This document shows, piece after piece, positions 9,213 to 42,487 of a stretch of 64,000 nt of DNA (positions within the stretch are counted from its first letter, which is position 1; each line of letters begins with the position of its first letter). The notes beneath the pieces were generated by a model, which saw only the letters and a list, made by a program, of their open reading frames with translations, searched no databases and was not told the DNA's origin. The position numbers and the translations under genes are program-made. This DNA is from Candidatus Kaiserbacteria bacterium (GTDB lineage Bacteria; Patescibacteriota; Minisyncoccia; Phycocordibacterales; Phycocordibacteraceae), in the NCBI GenBank assembly GCA_963813065.1, contig CAWEXP010000009.1, positions 1,931 through 65,930 on the forward strand, in the 5' to 3' direction.

Positions 9213-10064
9213 ATGAAATCTTATCGCCCCACCACCAAGAGTCGCCGTAGCATGACCACGCTTCCGTACCGAGAGCTCCTCTCGGGCGATGCGCCGCACA
9301 AGCCTCTCATGAAAGTGCAGAAGCGCGAGGGCGGACGCAACAACTTCGGTCGCATCACGACGCGTCACCAGGGCGGCGGGCACAAGCGCCGCTTCCGCGA
9401 CGTTGATTTCTCGTACGATAAGAAAAATATTCCGGCCAAGATCGAGACGATCGAATACGATCCGTTCCGTTCCGCCTTCATCGCACTGGCGCTCTACGCC
9501 GATGGCTCGCGCCGTTATCACCTCGTGCCCAAGGGGATGCAGGTGGGTGATCGCTTCACGGTTGGCGAGGACGCGCCGATTATTTCGGGCAATCGCGTTC
9601 CGCTCGGCAAGATCCCGGTCGGTACGTTCATCTACAACATCGAGCTCCGCCCCGGCGCGGGCGCCATCCTCGTCCGTTCGGCCGGCAATTTCGCTGAAGT
9701 GGTCGCGCACGATGCGGGCTACGCGCAGGTCAAGCTCCCCTCGACCGAGATTCGCCGCGTCAGCGACCTCTGCTGGGCTTCGATTGGTGCGGTTGGCAAT
9801 GAGGAATACAATCTCGTCGTCATCGGCAAGGCTGGTCGCTCGCGTTGGCTCGGCATCCGCCCGACGGTGCGCGGTACCGCGATGAACCCTGTCGACCATC
9901 CGCACGGCGGCGGCGAAGGACGCCAGGGTCGCGGCCTCAAGCGCGCCAAGAGCATGTGGGGCAAGCCGACGGGCAAGGGGCAGAAGACCCGCACACCGAA
10001 GAAGTACAGCAACGTCTTCATCGTCTCGCGCCGCAAGGTTGGGAAACGAAACAAGAAAGCGTAA
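9213..10064 (+). CDS. rplB: 50S ribosomal protein L2
   Basis: 283 aa, ...GRNNFGRITTRHQGGGHKRRFR...MNPVDHPHGGGEGR... Confidence 0.95.
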   Translation: MKSYRPTTKSRRSMTTLPYRELLSGDAPHKPLMKVQKREGGRNNFGRITTRHQGGGHKRRFRDVDFSYDKKNIPAKIETIEYDPFRSAFIALALYADGSRRYHLVPKGMQVGDRFTVGEDAPIISGNRVPLGKIPVGTFIYNIELRPGAGAILVRSAGNFAEVVAHDAGYAQVKLPSTEIRRVSDLCWASIGAVGNEEYNLVVIGKAGRSRWLGIRPTVRGTAMNPVDHPHGGGEGRQGRGLKRAKSMWGKPTGKGQKTRTPKKYSNVFIVSRRKVGKRNKKA

Positions 10065-10069
10065 TTTCA

Positions 10070-10110
10070 CAAGAAAACCCCCGCGCGCCGTCTCGGCGCG
10101 CGGGGGTTTT
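10070..10110 (+). terminator. intrinsic terminator after rplB (interrupts the S10 operon)
   Basis: aaaacccccgcgcgccgtctcggcgcgcgggggtttt. Confidence 0.7.
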
Positions 10111-10171
10111 CGTTGCAGTTCTTGCATTCTTGCGTTAGGCTCTCGCAAGATGAAGCCATAAGGAGGCCGCA

Positions 10172-10729
10172 ATGAGTGACCATAAAGAGCCTGTAAACCC
10201 AAACTTGGTGCAGGTAGAATTCATTCTTGTTGACATACCTGCCAAGACAGGAATCGAGTCCGATATCCAAACGCTTGCACTCGAGCTGGCCGGCAGGTTG
10301 CCGAAGCTCGTGGTGCGGTTCTTCGATGAGCGGGGACTGGTGACGAAGCTGGTGCAAGACTATGAAGCTACGCAGTCAGCCTACGGAGTGACCATAATCG
10401 AACTGGGGAAGATGAGTTTTGGTGGTCGATTTGCAGTCTCTGAGCAACGCGATGTCGCTCGTCTTTCGCGGAAAATGGACGCACTACGAGGCCAAGCGCG
10501 CTCACTCACAGTCGGCATGTTGAGTAGTGTCACGAAAGGGTCTCGCAGAATCGCCATCGAAGATTCGCCCGATCGACCTTTGCGCATGGCAGTCGAGGCC
10601 GAGTTCGACCACCTGGTCACCACGGCCAAGAAGGCAAAAGATGTGTTCATTTTCGTCTTCAAACCGAACGATCTTCTTTCCGAGAAGAACGAAGCTGTTG
10701 TCAGTATGGTATTTAAGCTCCAGCTGTAG
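10172..10729 (+). CDS. hypothetical protein (island gene, lower GC)
   Basis: An AGGAGG Shine-Dalgarno lies 6 nt upstream. 185 aa. The gene ends in TAG followed by the hairpin CCCCGCTCTGGCGGGGATTTTATTT. Confidence 0.5.
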   Translation: MSDHKEPVNPNLVQVEFILVDIPAKTGIESDIQTLALELAGRLPKLVVRFFDERGLVTKLVQDYEATQSAYGVTIIELGKMSFGGRFAVSEQRDVARLSRKMDALRGQARSLTVGMLSSVTKGSRRIAIEDSPDRPLRMAVEAEFDHLVTTAKKAKDVFIFVFKPNDLLSEKNEAVVSMVFKLQL

Positions 10730-10815
10730 CCCTCTCCCCGCTCTGGCGGGGATTTTATTTGCCTGTAACATGTCCTTGTGGTATAAGATGGCCAGAGCAA
10801 CCGAAGGAGAAACCA

Positions 10816-11199
10816 GTGATTATTCTTGAAAAGATGTCTCGCAAAATCTCGTTCTCTGCGGGCAATCATTTCCGTCGCGCCAATTTTATCGAAGAAATTG
10901 GCGATAGCTCAATGGTGGTGTGCGTTTGGTCGCAGTGTTCATTATGGGATACAGGCGTCTTCCGTGTCAGGCATGTGCCTGTCGTCGACACGGGCGTTGA
11001 AGTGTTCCAGCGTGGTCAGCCGATTCTCGACATCACCCAACAAATCAAGGGATATGCTCCCGCGAGCCTCATCACACCTCTTGAGCACCTCACTACCAAT
11101 GTTTCCTTGTGGAAACTGAAAGTGAGTCTTGAATCATCGGTCCTCGATGCGGTTGGCAAGGTATCGTTCCCAGACTTTCTTAACATCGAGTTCGAATAA
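10816..11199 (+). CDS. hypothetical protein (island gene)
   Basis: A GTG start with a perfect AAGGAG Shine-Dalgarno 7 nt upstream. The ORF track's upstream TTG at 10759 is the less likely start. Terminator CCCCGCGCAATGCGGGGATTTTTATT follows. Confidence 0.4.
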   Translation: MIILEKMSRKISFSAGNHFRRANFIEEIGDSSMVVCVWSQCSLWDTGVFRVRHVPVVDTGVEVFQRGQPILDITQQIKGYAPASLITPLEHLTTNVSLWKLKVSLESSVLDAVGKVSFPDFLNIEFE

Positions 11200-11228
11200 C
11201 GTGCCTGCCCCGCGCAATGCGGGGATTT

Positions 11229-11996
11229 TTATTGTTGATACTGCGGTTGAAGAATGGTGCGAATCTGCGAGACCGGGATGCGGAGCGTCTGCGGGCCCGA
11301 GGAGTACGGCGCGACCTGGTAGGGAGCGAAGAGGATAATGAAATCCTTGTTGTCGAAGAAGAAATTCTGGAAATTAGCGGCTTCGGGCGTCGTGCCGGGG
11401 TTGATGAAGGTCGGGTCAGCGCTATCGCCGATGATGGCGGGGAGCATCTGCCGCGCGAGGGTCGAGAGTGTGCCCAGATAATCGGAACCGCTCAAGAAAA
11501 TATCGCTCAAGGCGAGTGCTTGTCCGGTCGAGGTGTCGAAGGTGAGGGTCGAGAAGCTCGTGTTGGGGTGCGCGCCGAGCGTATCTTCGTAGGTGGTGAA
11601 GATGTAGGAAACCGTGCGGGGCGAAGAAGCGATGAGGTAGGTAATCTGGAGCGATTCTTTGCTTCCTTTATCGAATCCCATCATCGAAATGTCGCGCAGT
11701 GAGAGATGGTCGAAGTTGCCCTGCGTCTTGAAGTCGCTAATAATCCCGCTGACGAGCGATTGGATCTTCGCAATGGCGGCGCGGTCGGCCGCGGCACCCG
11801 CAGTTTCAGCGAGCGGGGTCGAGGTCGGATAGTTGGCGGCAATGTCGTAGTACGGCGCGTGCTCGGTGTCGCCGCCCTCTGGAAGCGTGAGAACGACGGG
11901 CGCCGAGACTGGCGTCGGCTTCACTGCCGCGTAGAACACAATCCCCACCACAATCACGACCAGCACCGCGCCACCGATAATCAGTTCTTTTTTCAT
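11229..11996 (-). CDS. membrane-anchored DUF3298/DUF4163-like (RsiV/PdaC-type) protein
   Basis: An N-terminal TM helix, then ...YYDIAANYP...ITYLIASSPRTVSYIFTTYEDTLGAHPNTSFSTLTFD... Confidence 0.5.
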   Translation of the reverse strand: MKKELIIGGAVLVVIVVGIVFYAAVKPTPVSAPVVLTLPEGGDTEHAPYYDIAANYPTSTPLAETAGAAADRAAIAKIQSLVSGIISDFKTQGNFDHLSLRDISMMGFDKGSKESLQITYLIASSPRTVSYIFTTYEDTLGAHPNTSFSTLTFDTSTGQALALSDIFLSGSDYLGTLSTLARQMLPAIIGDSADPTFINPGTTPEAANFQNFFFDNKDFIILFAPYQVAPYSSGPQTLRIPVSQIRTILQPQYQQ

Positions 11997-12048
11997 GTGA
12001 ACAGTCTAGCAAATCGGGCGAATATGGGCGCGTGATAGAATAACGAGC

Positions 12049-12426
12049 ATGAAGAAGGTCACAAAATCGATCGCGATTAAGGAGCCCACCCTTACGGAGG
12101 TTCTCGCTGTTATGAATGAGCGTTTCGACGTGGCTGAATCTCGTATGGAAAATAGATTTGGTGACATTGAAATCCGCATCGACAAACGTTTCAATTCTTT
12201 GAATGAGCGCTCGAACGGAATCGACGCGCGACTTGGTGTTATTGAAAGGCGGGCTGGTAAAATTGAGAACACTCTCGGCGATATACAAGATGATTTGACT
12301 TCCGCACTTGCCGCCACCGATAACGATGGTTCTGCGATTTTGAATCACGAACACCGCATCGCGCACCTAGAGAAATTGAGCAATATTAAAATCGTTCCAC
12401 CCCGGCATCTCGTCGGTCTTGAATAG
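12049..12426 (+). CDS. hypothetical coiled-coil protein (paralog of 6977..7291)
   Basis: MKKV...KEPTLTEVLAVMNERFD...RFGDIEIRIDKRFNSL...HEHRIAHLEK. A bidirectional terminator with a GATTAC loop follows. Confidence 0.5.
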   Translation: MKKVTKSIAIKEPTLTEVLAVMNERFDVAESRMENRFGDIEIRIDKRFNSLNERSNGIDARLGVIERRAGKIENTLGDIQDDLTSALAATDNDGSAILNHEHRIAHLEKLSNIKIVPPRHLVGLE

Positions 12427-12458
12427 AAAAACCCCGCCGATTACGGCGGGGTATCGTC

Positions 12459-12776
12459 TTACTCTTCGTTTGGGTTATAACTGAGTAAACGACCTCTTCT
12501 GGTTTGCGTGTTGTAAGTGCCTTTCAGGTATAAGTATTCACGATTTTTATACCGCTCAAGGGACGGTGCATTGACCAGATGGCCGTTACATACGATTTCC
12601 CACGGCTCGCCCTCACCAGAGCCTCGCTTAACTATGTCGATGGTTAGACTGTAGACATATTCTCCATCTCCGCCGTGGAAATGGAATTTCTGGGGAACGC
12701 CCTGAGCGAGTCCTGGAATTAACAACCCCCATTGCGAAGGACCGTTCACAACGAGATAATTCACTCCATGGGCCAT
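12459..12776 (-). CDS. hypothetical protein
   Basis: 105-aa ORF convergent with the 12049 ORF. Confidence 0.35.
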   Translation of the reverse strand: MAHGVNYLVVNGPSQWGLLIPGLAQGVPQKFHFHGGDGEYVYSLTIDIVKRGSGEGEPWEIVCNGHLVNAPSLERYKNREYLYLKGTYNTQTRRGRLLSYNPNEE

Positions 12777-12860
12777 CCGACCCTCCTTTGATACATGATC
12801 TCCTCATCGGTGCGGAAATCGAACACCCTGACTCCTCGCGGAGCGACCTACCCATACAGA

Positions 12861-13923
12861 CGCGCATTCTCATATGAATCCGAACACTCGCGGTATTGTG
12901 CGTGCATGAAAAAAGAAACGTTGGAAGCAGCTGAGCACGAGCGAGCGGTCTGAGATTTCAATACTGAAGCGCAAGAAGTATTCGCTCCGTGCGATTGCTC
13001 GAGCTCTTGGCCGCAGTGTTTCCAGCATCTCGGAAGAGTTGAAGAGGAATCGAGTGCGAGGTTTGTATGATGTACAGAAGGCTGCACACAAGGCGTATGC
13101 ACGAAGAAAGTACGCGAAGTATCAAGGCATGAAGATCGTCGGGCATGCGGGTCTGCGTTCACTCGTGGAAGAGCTGTTGTATGACGACCAATCGCCCGAG
13201 AACATCGCCGGAAGAGTCCGGAAGTATGCCAAGCGTCTGCCGACCATCTCGAAAGACGGCGTGTACCGATTCATCAAAAGCGTGTATGGCCGGAGAATTG
13301 AGTCGCATCGGAACGCGCGAAAGCAGAAACGAAGAAAGTATCACCCGAGAGTCGCGGCTCTTTCAGAGCGAACCTTCATCGACAAACGGCCCAGGCATAT
13401 CAACGCTCGTTCGAGGAGCGGAGATGTCGAGGCTGACTTCATTGTCTCGGGCAAGACTGGCAGAGGCATCCTGCTCGTGGTGGTCGACCGGAAGCTCCGC
13501 GTCACGTTCATCGAACGCATTCTCGATGTGTCAGTGGCGAACGTGCACCGGGCATTCCTCCGCATTCAACAGAGATTCCCCGAGCTCCGCACCATCACCA
13601 CTGACAACGATATTTTGTTCCAGATCATCAGGCACTCGCCACTCTTCTGGGGGTGCGCATCTATTTCTGTCGGCCGTATCACTCCTGGGAGAAAGGAACG
13701 GTTGAGAATACAAACGGCGTCATACGCAAAGACATACCGAAAGGCGCAAACATTTCTCGCTATTCAAAGGCATTTATACAAAAGCTCGAGGACAAGCTGA
13801 ACCGGAGGATACTGAAATGCCTCCAATACAAAACTCCGGCGGAAGCATTAGCTGCGGTACGGAAACGAAAAAAGCGCCGAGGCGCATGAAATTCGAGTGT
13901 TCGGATTGAGCCCGTCGAGCGGG
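12861..13923 (+). mobile_element. IS30-family insertion sequence, copy 1 (1063 bp; 3-bp TSD AGA)
   Basis: Ends CGCGCATTCTCATATGAATCCGAACACTCG ... CGAGTGTTCGGATTGAGCCCGTCGAGCGGG share the inverted core AATCCGAACACTCG. The flanks are acAGA|IS|AGAta. The copy is identical to 40332-41395 except for a 1-bp deletion. Confidence 0.85.
12906..13889 (+). pseudogene. IS30 family transposase, copy 1 (extra 1-bp deletion at ~13618 splits the DDE domain)
   Basis: The HTH region ...KKKRWKQLSTSERSEISILKRKKYSLRAIARALGRSVSSISEELKRN... lies in the +1 frame relative to the ATG at 12906. The DDE region ...TTDNDILF follows. This copy reads ttccagatc where copy 2 reads ttccgagatc. Confidence 0.8.
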
Positions 13924-14016
13924 AGATAGGAATTGATTTCAATATACACCCTTATGCAAATCTGTCAAAGTTTTAAAATGGGCTAGGGATTCTCGGGCAA
14001 TTTGGATTTGCCCGAG

Positions 14017-14045
14017 TTGACGGCTGGGAGAGACTCGTGTATCTT
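14017..14045 (+). promoter_or_regulatory. candidate promoter (TTGACG-17-TATCTT) re-initiating transcription of rpsS and downstream genes after the IS30/island insertion
   Basis: -35/-10-like hexamers with 17-nt spacing, 36 nt upstream of rpsS. Confidence 0.35.
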
Positions 14046-14049
14046 GCCT

Positions 14050-14078
14050 CTATCCCGTTCGGCGGGATATTTATTTCA
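14050..14078 (+). promoter_or_regulatory. terminator-like hairpin in the rpsS leader (possible attenuator)
   Basis: CCCGTTCGGCGGGATATTTATTT lies between the candidate promoter and the rpsS ATG. It is the same motif family as the hairpins at 10733 and 11204. Confidence 0.35.
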
Positions 14079-14080
14079 CT

Positions 14081-14485
14081 ATGGCACGATCACTCAAGAA
14101 GGGACCCTACGTGGACGTCAAACTCCTCAAAAAGGTCCAAAAAGCTCAGTCCCGCACCGCGGGGGTGATTAAGACGTGGGCGCGCGGAAGCCGAATCAGC
14201 CCGGAAATGGTTGGTTTCACCTTCGGCGTCCACAACGGCAAGAGCCACATTGAGGTCCTCGTCTCTGAGGAGATGGTGGGGCATCGGCTCGGTGAATTCT
14301 CGCCGACCAAGAAGTTCATCCGCCACGGTGGCAAGATGCAGAAGGAGCTCGAACAGAAGCGCCAGGAGTCGGAGGTCGCCGCCGCCAAGGCCGCCTCTGC
14401 CGCTCCGCCGCTAAGAAATAATTTGTATGAAAGCGACTCTCGAAAGCCACAATCAGTCCCCGCGCAAGGTCCGCCTCGTGGCTGA
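14081..14485 (+). CDS. rpsS: 30S ribosomal protein S19; 3' boundary uncertain (reads 59 nt into rplV)
   Basis: [19 protein letters not shown]...[45 protein letters not shown]... The ORF runs ~40 aa past the usual S19 end to a TGA at 14483. Confidence 0.7.
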
Positions 14486-14744
14486 CCTCGTGAAAGGGAA
14501 GAAGGTCCCGGCGGCGCTCTCGGCGCTCGCGTTCCTCCCCAAGCGCGCGAGCGAGCCAGTCGCCAAGCTCATCAAGAGCGCGGCCGCTAATGCCAAGGAC
14601 AAGGGCGAGAACCCGAAGAGCTCACGATAGGTCAATCACCCGTCGAGAGCGCGGAAATGTCGAAGCGTTTCATGCCGCCACGCCTTCGGCCGCGCCTCGG
14701 CGATTCGCCACAAGAAGAGCCGCATTAAGGTCGTCCTCGCGTAA
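14427..14744 (+). pseudogene. rplV: 50S ribosomal protein L22 with an in-frame TAG at 14628-14630
   Basis: [27 protein letters not shown]...[55 protein letters not shown]. Homology to L22 continues in the same frame across the stop. Confidence 0.7.
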
Positions 14745-14749
14745 CTTCT

Positions 14750-15439
14750 ATGACTCACACCGTACATCCCTATGCGCACCGCCTCGGCATCATCCGCGAC
14801 TGGAAGAGCCGTTGGTTCGCCGCCGACAAGAAGAGCTACCGCGAGAATATCAAGGTAGACGCCGCACTCCGCGCCTTCCTCGAGAAGAAGCTCCACGGTA
14901 CCTACACCTCGGGTATCGACATCGAGCGCTCGGCGACCGAGCTCCGCGTGATCCTGGCCACCGCCCGCCCCGGCTCGTGATTGGTCGCTCGGGCGAGAAC
15001 GCCGCCGAGCTCCGCGCCGAGATCACTAAGGTCGCCCGCAAGGTGGCGCCTCTTGATCGCCGCACGGTGAAGTTCGATATCGTCGAAGTGCGCCAGCCGG
15101 AGACAGACGCGGCGGTCGTCGCGGCGATGGTCGCCGAAGGCCTTGAGAAGCGTATGCCCTTCCGCCGCGTGCTCAAGCAGACGGTCGAGAAAGTGAAGGC
15201 CGTCCGCGAGGTCGAGGGCGTGCGCATCACGATCAGTGGCCGCCTCGGCGGCGCCGAGATGTCGCGCAAAGAGGAAATCAAGCGCGGACGCATCCCGCTC
15301 CAGACCTTCCGTGCGGACATCGACTGGCCTATGGCAAAGCTCCAGCTCCGTACGCGTCATCGACATCAAGGTTTGGATTTACCGCGGCAATATCTTCGCC
15401 GAGAAGAAGGCGGCAAGCCCGAGCCTCTCGCGGGCCTAA
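14750..15439 (+). pseudogene. rpsC: 30S ribosomal protein S3 with at least two frameshifts
   Basis: The N-terminus MTHTVHPYAHRLGIIRDWKSRWFA...ILATARPG ends at 14980. The next segment LVIGRSGENAAELRAEITK...GRLGGAEMSRKEEIKRGRIPLQTFRADID reads in another frame; a 1-nt deletion occurs at ggc(c)tcgtg. The C-terminus VIDIKVWIYRGNIF is in a third frame. Confidence 0.75.
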
Positions 15440-15448
15440 TACATTGCT

Positions 15449-40086: not shown

Positions 40087-40331
40087 GTAGTGCCGCGAAT
40101 TGTTCCTGCACTTTCTGTAATTTCGGCGCAATGATCACCTGGCAGTAGCCCTGGTTCTGGTTTTTCTCGTAGAAGTCGCGGTGGTATGCCTCGGCGGGGT
40201 AGAACTTCGTGAGTGGTGCAACCTCAGTAGCGATGGGCGCGCCCGTTTTCGCCGAAGCGTTGAGGCCGGCAATGAAATTCTCTGCAGAGTGTTTCTGCGC
40301 CTCAGAGGTATAGAGAATCAGCGAGCGATAC
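40082..40331 (-). pseudogene. msrA: msrA 3' half (split by IS30 copy 2)
   Basis: ...YRSLILYTSEAQKHSAENFIAGLNASAKTGAPIATEVAPLTKFYPAEAYHRDFYEKNQNQGYC... resumes directly after the IS end. Confidence 0.8.
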
Positions 40332-41395
40332 CCCGCTCGACGGGCTCAATCCGAACACTCGAATTTCATGCGCCTCGGCGCTTTTTTCGTTTCCGTACCG
40401 CAGCTAATGCTTCCGCCGGAGTTTTGTATTGGAGGCATTTCAGTATCCTCCGGTTCAGCTTGTCCTCGAGCTTTTGTATAAATGCCTTTGAATAGCGAGA
40501 AATGTTTGCGCCTTTCGGTATGTCTTTGCGTATGACGCCGTTTGTATTCTCAACCGTTCCTTTCTCCCAGGAGTGATACGGCCGACAGAAATAGATGCGC
40601 ACCCCCAGAAGAGTGGCGAGTGCCTGATGATCTCGGAACAAAATATCGTTGTCAGTGGTGATGGTGCGGAGCTCGGGGAATCTCTGTTGAATGCGGAGGA
40701 ATGCCCGGTGCACGTTCGCCACTGACACATCGAGAATGCGTTCGATGAACGTGACGCGGAGCTTCCGGTCGACCACCACGAGCAGGATGCCTCTGCCAGT
40801 CTTGCCCGAGACAATGAAGTCAGCCTCGACATCTCCGCTCCTCGAACGAGCGTTGATATGCCTGGGCCGTTTGTCGATGAAGGTTCGCTCTGAAAGAGCC
40901 GCGACTCTCGGGTGATACTTTCTTCGTTTCTGCTTTCGCGCGTTCCGATGCGACTCAATTCTCCGGCCATACACGCTTTTGATGAATCGGTACACGCCGT
41001 CTTTCGAGATGGTCGGCAGACGCTTGGCATACTTCCGGACTCTTCCGGCGATGTTCTCGGGCGATTGGTCGTCATACAACAGCTCTTCCACGAGTGAACG
41101 CAGACCCGCATGCCCGACGATCTTCATGCCTTGATACTTCGCGTACTTTCTTCGTGCATACGCCTTGTGTGCAGCCTTCTGTACATCATACAAACCTCGC
41201 ACTCGATTCCTCTTCAACTCTTCCGAGATGCTGGAAACACTGCGGCCAAGAGCTCGAGCAATCGCACGGAGCGAATACTTCTTGCGCTTCAGTATTGAAA
41301 TCTCAGACCGCTCGCTCGTGCTCAGCTGCTTCCAACGTTTCTTTTTTCATGCACGCACAATACCGCGAGTGTTCGGATTCATATGAGAATGCGCG
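40332..41395 (-). mobile_element. IS30-family insertion sequence, copy 2 (1064 bp; 3-bp TSD GTA), inserted in msrA
   Basis: Identical to copy 1 apart from one base. The flanks ...gagGTA|IS|GTAtcgc reconstruct the msrA codons G-T-E-Y-R-S. Confidence 0.9.
40366..41349 (-). CDS. IS30 family transposase, copy 2 (HTH in +1 frame after an A6 tract; 283-aa DDE ORF intact)
   Basis: The ORF 40366-41217 is intact, including ...TTDNDILFRDHQALATLLGVRIYFCRPYHSWEKGTVENTNGVIRKD... The N-terminal HTH lies upstream in the +1 frame relative to the ATG at 41349. Confidence 0.8.
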
Positions 41396-41679
41396 TACTC
41401 GGTACCCGTGTCGGGGCCCTGGCGATTGACCTGCGTCGCATCATGCGACCCGAAGAAGACCGTGAGCAGATTGGTATAGCTAATCTGGTTGGGGTCGAAC
41501 TCAACTTTGATGACCTCGGCGTGGCCCGTGCGGCCGCTCGCGACCCGTTCGTACGTCGGCGCTTCACTCGTACCGCCCGCGTATCCCGGCTCAACGCTCT
41601 CGATACCTCGCAACATTTTAAAAACAGCTTCTGTGCACCAGAAGCACCCACTCCCGAAAACGGCTGTTTCTGTGTTCAT
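41396..41679 (-). pseudogene. msrA: msrA 5' half (fused to the IS30 terminus)
   Basis: MNTETAVFGSGCFWCTEAVF...GHAEVIKVEFDP...NRQGPDTGTEY, then IS-derived AHSHMNPNTRGIVRA-stop. Confidence 0.8.
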
Positions 41680-41728
41680 GCACGTATCGTAGCAAATAAA
41701 AAACGGGCCCCGTGGGGCCCGTCGAAGG

Positions 41729-42487
41729 TTATGTGTGGTGAGCATCTGGTAGAGATTGCATAAGATCAGCGAAGGAACCGCCATCTTCTTCATCATTCCA
41801 GTCGAGGAGTGCGGCGGCCGTGAGTTGCATGGCCGTGTCGCTCCCGCCGCGCCGGAAGAGCCACTTCACCGCGTCGGACATCTCAATGCCACTGTCATGG
41901 AAAAGGCATCCGATGCCCTGAAAGAAATGACGATCCAGATAGTCGTCCAGGAGTGGACCACCAACAACCGTTTCGATCTTGTCGAACACGCGTCCTTCGG
42001 CATCGTCTCCGAAGCCAGAGGTGAGTGCATGCCGCACTAATTCGTGGCGCATCTCGAGCGAGGATTTTTCTTCGGCAAAGTCGAGTGCGAATTCAAGCGC
42101 GTCACGCCAGTCCCGCATCAATGCTTCATCGAACGCAACGGCATAAATAATCGCGTCGGCATCGAGTTCGGAGAGATACGACGCGAGCTCGAACGCTTTT
42201 GCATCGTCGCCGCCATCGCCGAACACCTCGTAGAATGCCCGTGCGGCTTCCGAGAGTTTGTCCGGGTTGAAGTCATCGCGCGACCAGTCGCCGACTTCCA
42301 TGACCAGCTCTGTGATGCGCTCCTCGAGCATGGCGAAGTGCGCCTGCATTTCGTCGAAATACGCGGTGTCGCTTTTCGAGAGAGGGCCGGCGATTCGTTC
42401 GAGTCGCTGGCGCTGTACCTCAGTCAGGTGATACCGCTGTTTTGCTTCGGCGAGCACGACGGCGTCGAACATGTTTCTATCGAACAT
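41729..42487 (-). CDS. hypothetical acidic protein
   Basis: 252-aa ORF. A terminator lies at 41700-41725 on this strand. Confidence 0.4.
   Translation of the reverse strand: MFDRNMFDAVVLAEAKQRYHLTEVQRQRLERIAGPLSKSDTAYFDEMQAHFAMLEERITELVMEVGDWSRDDFNPDKLSEAARAFYEVFGDGGDDAKAFELASYLSELDADAIIYAVAFDEALMRDWRDALEFALDFAEEKSSLEMRHELVRHALTSGFGDDAEGRVFDKIETVVGGPLLDDYLDRHFFQGIGCLFHDSGIEMSDAVKWLFRRGGSDTAMQLTAAALLDWNDEEDGGSFADLMQSLPDAHHT

Follow-up and report, generated by a model that had tools for sequence, protein, structure and literature searches.

Start codon and transposase reading frame disagree in an IS30-family element of Candidatus Kaiserbacteria and its Patescibacteria relatives, with a candidate slip site in the A-run after the ATG

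A 64,000-nucleotide (nt) stretch of DNA from Candidatus Kaiserbacteria bacterium (GenBank assembly GCA_963813065.1, contig CAWEXP010000009.1, positions 1,931 to 65,930 of the forward strand), hereafter the window, carries two copies of an IS30-family insertion sequence (IS). In both copies, the start ATG is followed by a run of six A's (A6) and is out of frame with the transposase open reading frame (ORF), which encodes a helix-turn-helix (HTH) domain and a DDE catalytic domain. The features of the two copies, including the left and right terminal inverted repeats (IRL and IRR), are as follows.

12861..13923, plus strand: IS30-family element copy 1, 1063 bp, with the 3-bp target duplication AGA (12858-12860 and 13924-13926); the inverted repeats, a comparison of the flanks and Logan contig L167 agree on its ends
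12861..12890, plus strand: IRL of copy 1; 19 of 30 positions match the IRR, with a perfect 14-bp core, AATCCGAACACTCG
12894-12899, plus strand: -10-like hexamer TATTGT, separated from the ATG by the 6-nt spacer gcgtgc; copy 2 equivalent 41362-41357
12906-12908, plus strand: start ATG, out of frame with the transposase ORF; copy 2 equivalent 41350-41348
12906..12953, plus strand: zero-frame short ORF MKKETLEAAEHERAV, 15 codons plus TGA 12951-12953, translated from ATG 12906
12909-12914, plus strand: A6 run, proposed slip site; copy 2 equivalent 41347-41342
12910..13621, plus strand: N-terminal part of the copy 1 transposase, HTH_38 through the second catalytic D; frame opened by TGA 12907-12909
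13623..13889, plus strand: C-terminal part of the copy 1 transposase, with WEKGTVEN; shifted by a missing G between 13621 and 13622
13894..13923, plus strand: IRR of copy 1, from end comparison
40332..41395, minus strand: IS30-family element copy 2, 1064 bp, within msrA, with the target duplication GTA (41396-41398 and 40329-40331)
40366..41346, minus strand: copy 2 transposase frame, unbroken, 326 codons plus stop, KKKRWKQ... to ...RKRKKRRGA

Judged by its profile matches, HTH type, size, ends, target duplication and catalytic spacing, the element is a member of the IS30 family. The transposase matches NCBIfam NF033563 (transpos_IS30) at 185.7 bits against a cutoff of 80 (E value 1.3e-54) and Pfam PF13936 (HTH_38) at 55.6 bits against a cutoff of 27 (residues 5 to 48), and the Pfam rve match reaches 27.7 bits, under its cutoff of 32.6. 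IS30-family transposases have a D..D(33)E catalytic triad, and a hand count on the copy 2 translation gave 33 residues from the first D of TTDND to the E of GTVEN. ISfinder describes the family as elements of about 1.0 to 1.7 kb with terminal inverted repeats and target duplications of 2 to 3 bp, which the size, the imperfect 30-bp inverted repeats and the target duplications of the present element fit. The inverted-repeat core GAATCCGAACAC was found again in relatives. Excision of copy 2 rejoins msrA, with GTEY followed directly by RSLILY. The cut msrA frame (region 40329-41796, minus strand) enters copy 2 in the transposase frame and ends at a TGA (41349-41347) that overlaps the ATG, and the same stop therefore also blocks in-frame read-through from genes outside the element.

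The start regions of both copies are identical in sequence, and in copy 1 the run is closed by G 12915 (ATG-A6-G). As the first-pass annotation of this DNA had noted, the ATG is followed by AAAAAAG and translation from it stops after 15 codons; the coordinates and translation given there agree with those obtained here, except that the ATG of copy 2, placed at 41349, lies at 41350-41348 of the minus strand. The HTH-encoding frame KKKRWKQLSTSERSEISILKRKKYSLRAIARALGRSVSSISEELKRN begins at 12910, which is +1 relative to ATG 12906, and is opened by a TGA (12907-12909) overlapping the ATG (ATGA). No ATG, GTG or TTG occurs in this frame from 12910 until TTG 13039, well 3' of the helix-turn-helix, and the single in-frame start typical of IS30 family organization is absent, which is a matter of organization and not of homology. 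The assignment of both domains to the +1 frame holds for the HTH in both copies and for the whole DDE domain in copy 2; in copy 1, a second frameshift just 3' of the second catalytic D splits the DDE domain. It also restricts the described identity of the two copies to the start region. The sole difference between the copies is the G at 40634 of copy 2 (ttccGagatc), missing in copy 1 between 13621 and 13622, and this loss reflects either an inactivating mutation confined to copy 1 or a mistake in the assembly.

Several changes in the A count would reconcile the two frames. Removal of one A gives MKKKRWKQ... and a 327-amino-acid (aa) product, as had been pointed out, and the addition of two A's gives MKKKKRWKQ from the same ATG 12906. 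With one added A, GTG 12902 comes in frame (MHEKKKRWKQ, which resembles the called N termini of some relatives), so that loss of one A is not the sole repair. Nor is ATG 12906 the only ATG, as had been claimed: ATG 12874, within the left inverted repeat, shares the HTH frame and terminates at TGA 12907 (MNPNTRGIVRA*KKKRW). As upstream starts, ATG 12874 was rejected since it is blocked by TGA 12907, and GTG 12902 since it is in frame only at A7 and in-frame GTG or TTG codons of that sort occur in few relatives.

Relatives of the element were drawn from species-representative genomes and JGI metagenomes, and their 5' ends were tabulated after each element had been anchored on the conserved L-S-x-S-E-R motif. 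The clade set is made up of 100 distinct elements whose aa identity is 44% or higher, and the named hosts are almost all metagenome-assembled genomes (MAGs) of Patescibacteria. In total, 56 of the 100 elements need a +1 shift, 40 need a -1 shift, and 4 are in frame, of which just 2 have an intact ORF; one third would be expected to be in frame (binomial p = 1e-12). The codon adjoining the A-run is identifiable as ATG in 100 of 100 clade elements. All 96 out-of-frame elements, and all 100 clade members, carry a run of A5 to A8 starting 0 to 9 nt (mostly 0 to 5 nt) past the ATG, and the run has at least seven A's in about 90% of the out-of-frame members. The A-run adjoining the AUG is the only feature common to the +1 and -1 classes. 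The zero-frame ORFs of the relatives are 4 to 75 codons long (median, 19.5), and the stop that opens the transposase frame is TAA or TAG as well as TGA. Many relatives (e.g., L091, L121, L094 and L085) have two A-runs 1 to 4 nt apart (A8-C-A6, A6-C-A8, A5-TC-A8 and A6-TTT-A7), and the frame could be restored through a length change in one or the other run; the window element, by comparison, carries one A6 and then GAAA.

The first-pass annotation had held that IS30 transposases are normally single-frame, and this is true of the outgroup, 34 more distant IS30-family relatives from Elusimicrobia, Proteobacteria, FCPU426, Bacteroidota and other taxa. An in-frame ATG, 15 to 27 nt 5' of the motif, is present in 33 of the 34, and these elements are mostly without an A-run. 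Taken at the sequence level, the mismatch between the ATG and the transposase frame is genuine and common to about 96 of 100 related Patescibacteria elements. Most likely, the clade makes its transposase only through gain or loss of one or two A's in the run after the ATG.

The out-of-frame layout has persisted under selection. Complete downstream ORFs of at least 300 codons (316 to 346 aa) are present in 94 elements. Synonymous divergence (dS) is saturated in 4,320 of 4,371 pairs, and the median ratio of nonsynonymous (dN) to synonymous divergence among 49 informative pairs is 0.11. Elements separated by dS values of 0.6 to 1.4 still share the frame class and, in most cases, the exact tract lengths; below a dS of 1.5, 18 pairs agree and 4 differ. 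The window element and L081, for example, both have ATG-A6-G at a dS of 1.35. Directly 3' of the run, in the KKFSHLSKSE segment, variation is concentrated at the third positions of HTH-frame codons, which means that translation must already be in the HTH frame there; no in-frame start was found in the clade relatives between the frame-opening stop and this segment, and entry into the HTH frame must take place at the run. These patterns indicate that purifying selection on the out-of-frame elements is strong and that the elements are not decaying. Copy 2 is a recent insertion in msrA and both copies have A6, which suggests that the element moved while retaining the out-of-frame tract. An unseen third copy that is in frame may also act in trans.

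When 104 elements were aligned on the ATG, an extended -10-like motif, TGnTAnAAT, emerged at -15 to -7 from the A of the ATG, with frequencies of 0.69 for T-15, 0.56 for G-14, 0.75 for T-12, 0.88 for A-11, 0.68 for A-9, 0.58 for A-8 and 0.81 for T-7. The stretch from -6 to -1 is A-rich, and no purine-rich Shine-Dalgarno-like consensus was seen in this alignment. The spacing between box and ATG is fixed across elements, and the distance from the box and ATG to the inverted-repeat core is visibly variable. The motif has the makeup of an extended -10 box, and its distance from the A of the ATG is the canonical one for transcription starting there, which would yield a leaderless mRNA beginning AUG-A(n). 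With the box (TAnAAT in the clade, TATTGT in the window) 6 nt 5' of the ATG, transcription in the window is predicted to start at A 12906. Leaderless initiation requires a 5'-terminal AUG, and the invariant ATG of the clade fits a leaderless mRNA for that reason. Several outgroup elements (e.g., L047, L039, L078, L073 and L033) also have a -10-like hexamer 6 to 9 nt 5' of their in-frame ATG. The ancestral state may therefore have been little or no leader, the A-run and the frame offset being the derived traits, and mRNAs of this kind may be widespread in this part of the IS30 family.

The reading of these observations to which we give slightly better than even credence is that RNA polymerase slips in the A-run, that a minority of transcripts are thereby in frame, and that the transposase is kept low. 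The transcript would begin at the A of the AUG, without a leader or Shine-Dalgarno sequence, and the A-run would directly follow the AUG (A6 here, A7 to A8 in most relatives). RNA polymerase would then slip on the A:T hybrid within the first ten nucleotides of the transcript (reiterative or slippage synthesis). Unslipped messages would yield the 15-residue zero-frame peptide as the default product, and messages with one A fewer or two more would encode the full-length HTH_38 and DDE transposase. The slip would act as a built-in throttle, with low transposase leading to low transposition. Its placement at the RNA level and its efficiency are, like the transcription start site, predictions from this layout, of which the element anatomy, the conservation in the clade, the purifying selection and the fixed spacing of -10-like box and ATG are observed directly.

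The occurrence of both +1 and -1 arrangements within one transposase family has been described as a signature of transcriptional realignment, since ribosomal frameshifts keep their direction among orthologues (PMC3711429). The mixed directions in the clade accordingly favor polymerase slippage over a dedicated +1 ribosomal frameshift. Two features that mark realignment were found here, a slippery homopolymer conserved at the frame junction and both directions in one family; a third, two functional products (an OrfA regulator and an OrfAB transposase), was not, the zero-frame product having 15 residues. In IS1447, a run of seven A's is enough for the polymerase to slip in either direction, each at about 16% (PMC6211511), and productive reiterative initiation is favored by A/T tracts where transcripts begin (PMC12709180). 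The proposal of the first-pass annotation that a programmed slip in the run regulates the transposase thus gains support from the layout shared by 96 of 100 relatives and its maintenance by purifying selection at saturated dS. A broader version, that in an IS30 clade essentially confined to Patescibacteria the transposase frame is set by nontemplated gain or loss of A's among the first ten nucleotides of an mRNA without a leader, with reiterative initiation as an obligatory step, is a tentative extension that we hold to be somewhat less probable than not.

Several points weigh against polymerase slippage. Reiterative initiation is known to act on tracts that start at +1 to +3, whereas the tract of the window, counted from the predicted transcription start on the A of the ATG, would occupy +4 to +9. 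A consensus promoter scan called no -35/-10 promoter at the predicted site, and the window box TATTGT is a weak match without the TG extension; the -10 assignment follows from the family-wide position-specific motif, not from the consensus scan. With six A's or fewer, no slipped product could be detected from constructs of IS1447 (PMC6211511), and slippage in the elongation phase is usually said to need about nine A's (PMC1088944). Apart from tract length, the clade elements L134 (A7, in frame) and L017 (A8, +1) are identical at a dS of 0, so a change of length at the DNA level is possible. Apparent single-base indels in essential genes near copy 1 make the window sequence by itself not fully trustworthy. 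Furthermore, sequence alone does not separate slippage of the polymerase from slippage of the ribosome on the A-run.

The latter is the foremost alternative and a serious one, although we consider it unlikely. The tRNA-Lys would slip +1 or -1 at codons 2 to 3, or the ribosome would slide on the A tract, and either event would be aided because, at this early point of elongation, there is neither upstream mRNA nor an E-site tRNA. A-runs, including those of the A_AAA_AAG type, are classic ribosomal shift sites (PMC3711429 and PMC6211511), the AAA AAA G of the window lets tRNA-Lys re-pair on AAG in the +1 frame, and six A's are enough for a ribosome but marginal for a polymerase. However, the direction is not conserved (56 elements +1, 40 elements -1), as it is among orthologues in known cases of ribosomal frameshifting (PMC3711429). 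A folding test revealed no stimulatory RNA structure downstream (z = -1.05) and Rfam gave no match, the zero frame has no stop or obviously slow codon beside the run, and the preference of the clade for A7 to A8 agrees with polymerase thresholds.

Phase variation at the DNA level is a weaker candidate still. Here the copies would normally be OFF, rare replication slippage would make ON copies that transpose, and no recoding would take place. A 5' homopolymer is the usual layout of contingency loci (general knowledge and PMC3711429), tract lengths differ across the clade, and L134 (A7, in frame) and L017 (A8, out of frame) differ by a dN of 0.001 with their dS of 0. This pair (L134, Ga0100398_1000807; L017, PFOG01000082.1, from a Portnoybacteria MAG) is the only near-identical one that differs in tract length, the difference being in the first A-run. 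A freely switching tract, in contrast, should be in frame in one third of the elements instead of 4 of 100, and the exact tract lengths are kept at dS values of 0.6 to 1.4. Length polymorphism with ON and OFF states both common characterizes contingency loci, a pattern that the clade lacks, with one polymorphic pair and 4% in-frame elements. In addition, both window copies and the collapsed Logan contig have A6 although copy 2 was inserted recently; given this uniformity, each copy must have returned to A6 independently, or an unseen ON copy must act in trans, if transposition depends on ON copies.

That the copies are dead or decaying, with an inactivating frameshift and mobility provided by another, intact copy, is very improbable. 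The catalytic domain of copy 1 does carry the second frameshift, and the view of the genome is limited to 64 kb; the 253-aa product called from copy 2 is recorded on two contigs, the longest of 137.9 kb. However, the downstream ORF of copy 2 is intact over its 326 codons, and the retention of the out-of-frame state throughout the clade at a dN/dS of about 0.11 and saturated dS is incompatible with long-dead genes.

Similarly slight is the chance that A6 is a sequencing or assembly error and that the true sequence is A5, or A7 read from GTG 12902, in an ordinary single ORF. The genes rplV (L22) and rpsC (S3) at 14427-15440, 0.5 to 1.5 kb 3' of copy 1, are each split between two frames, the frame changing twice or more within each gene, and one break near 14975 resembles a missing C of a CC pair. 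This suggests single-base indel errors in the assembly around 14427-15440, and the window alone therefore cannot settle the A count; the G missing from copy 1, which copy 2 and L167 both carry, and the A7 of relatives L163, L165 and L166 point the same way. The separately assembled L167 (1,066 bp, run ERR11630400) is nevertheless 100% identical to copy 2, with A6 and the G present; its left end coincides exactly with that of the element, and its right end is two bases longer. The first-pass annotation had recommended a comparison with the closest relatives for A5 or A6. ATG-A6-G occurs in the same frame relation in L161 (87% aa identity), L162 (86%), L164 (80%) and the JGI contig L081 (78 to 81%), all from datasets other than that of the window, and the A7 of L163, L165 and L166 puts the same ATG out of frame in the opposite direction. 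Since 96 of 100 clade members from many projects are also out of frame, the homopolymer miscall shared by both copies that had been considered earlier is very unlikely. The neighboring rpsS (14081-14485), extended by about 40 aa at its C terminus, adds to the signs of indel errors in this part of the assembly.

Initiation elsewhere, either at a noncanonical in-frame codon or at ATG 12874 if TGA 12907 is read through or reassigned, is scarcely credible: ATG 12874 lies in the HTH frame and the call P0018 begins at the equivalent codon (TTG) within its inverted repeat, but in relatives TAA or TAG closes the frame as often as TGA does, other long ORFs of the window end at TGA, no in-frame near-cognate codon is conserved, and the predicted transcript begins 3' of 12874. 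An alternative genetic code or TGA read-through was accordingly rejected, since the TAA and TAG frame openers exclude recoding or reassignment of TGA.

The gene calls of the family vary at their 5' ends. Among P0001-P0036, the 319-aa forms ('MSASER...') start at the Leu codon (TTG) of the HLS motif, and other calls start at an internal Met (253- to 308-aa forms), at GTG, or at TTG inside the inverted repeat (P0018), which indicates that annotated N termini of the family are unreliable and often likely wrong. The L2 protein of the host is 84 to 89% identical to those of Paceibacterota and Kaiserbacteria MAGs. The source genome is absent from the GTDB representative genomes, in which the best hit reached 64% aa identity, and exact look-ups of the called window product P0010 and of the rpsC fragment gave no match. 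Its gene, rplB (9213-10061), and rpsS (from 14081), which are normally adjacent, lie about 4 kb apart, and the ribosomal-protein operon is interrupted. The gap (10062-14080) contains ORFs on both strands at 10172-12776 without an NCBIfam match, in addition to IS copy 1.

To our knowledge, A-run recoding limits the transposase in IS1, IS3, IS5 and IS630, always at the internal junction of two ORFs. The same principle would operate here in a family regarded as single-ORF, with the slip site beside the start codon and kept across a large Patescibacteria clade. If the broader version given above is correct, the clade would provide the first description of a recoding system in the IS30 family and one of very few recoding sites directly after an initiator codon, hence without an OrfA-type product. 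If confirmed, it would extend the known layouts of programmed slippage by a new one, provide a natural test case for slippage of polymerase or ribosome in the first nucleotides or codons of a leaderless mRNA, and give insight into gene expression in organisms almost untouched experimentally. In practice, the N-terminal annotation of the family calls for distrust.

Among known systems, ancient poly(A)-tract frameshifts in genes of endosymbionts are reportedly usually read as tolerated decay and not as a designed throttle. These cases (Wernegreen et al. 2010, cited in PMC12709180) resemble the present one in that out-of-frame genes are maintained by selection, since slippage restores the frame in a fraction of products, and they differ in affecting host genes at internal tracts of about ten A's, in place of a start-adjacent IS tract. 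IS1 and IS3 (IS911) likewise have A6G-type sequences and require a frameshift for the transposase, but they use a fixed -1 shift at A_AAA_AAC/G with downstream stimulators and make OrfA and OrfAB, whereas the direction varies in the present clade and the window copy needs +1. Known cases of reiterative initiation alter leader length or release the transcript and are not described as setting a coding frame. At pyrBI, codBA, upp and pyrG, a homopolymer in the initially transcribed region leads to the addition of 5' nucleotides and serves regulation, as proposed here, with the tract at or just after the start site (PMC12709180) in place of +4 from a predicted start.

Searches of the literature, with incomplete coverage, returned nothing relevant on IS30 with slippage, frameshifting or realignment, on the candidate phyla radiation (CPR, the Patescibacteria) with IS30, or on leaderless transcripts with Patescibacteria, and IS30 is not named in the main texts or in two supplementary files of PMC3711429 and PMC1088944. 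The IS630 and IS5/IS3-type clusters share with the present clade poly-A slip sites conserved among homologues and both +1 and -1 arrangements within a family (PMC3711429 and PMC1088944); their sites are internal and join two ORFs, whereas the site here is beside the start codon. Closest in mechanism are IS1447 and its relatives of the IS3 family, in which, as proposed here, an A-run in the transposase gene causes bidirectional polymerase slippage, one outcome encodes the full-length protein, and the transposase is kept low (PMC6211511). The run of IS1447, however, lies between orfA and orfB beside an RNA hairpin and leads to two functional proteins, OrfA and OrfAB (PMC6211511), whereas here it forms codons 2 to 3 of a predicted leaderless mRNA, with no structure detected and an unshifted 15-residue peptide of no evident function. 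In anatomy, the element resembles IS30 of Escherichia coli and its family, with a length of about 1.06 kb, HTH_38 and DDE domains, a 3-bp target duplication and terminal inverted repeats, and it departs from the typical members, which have one ORF beginning at an in-frame ATG, as 33 of the 34 outgroup elements do.

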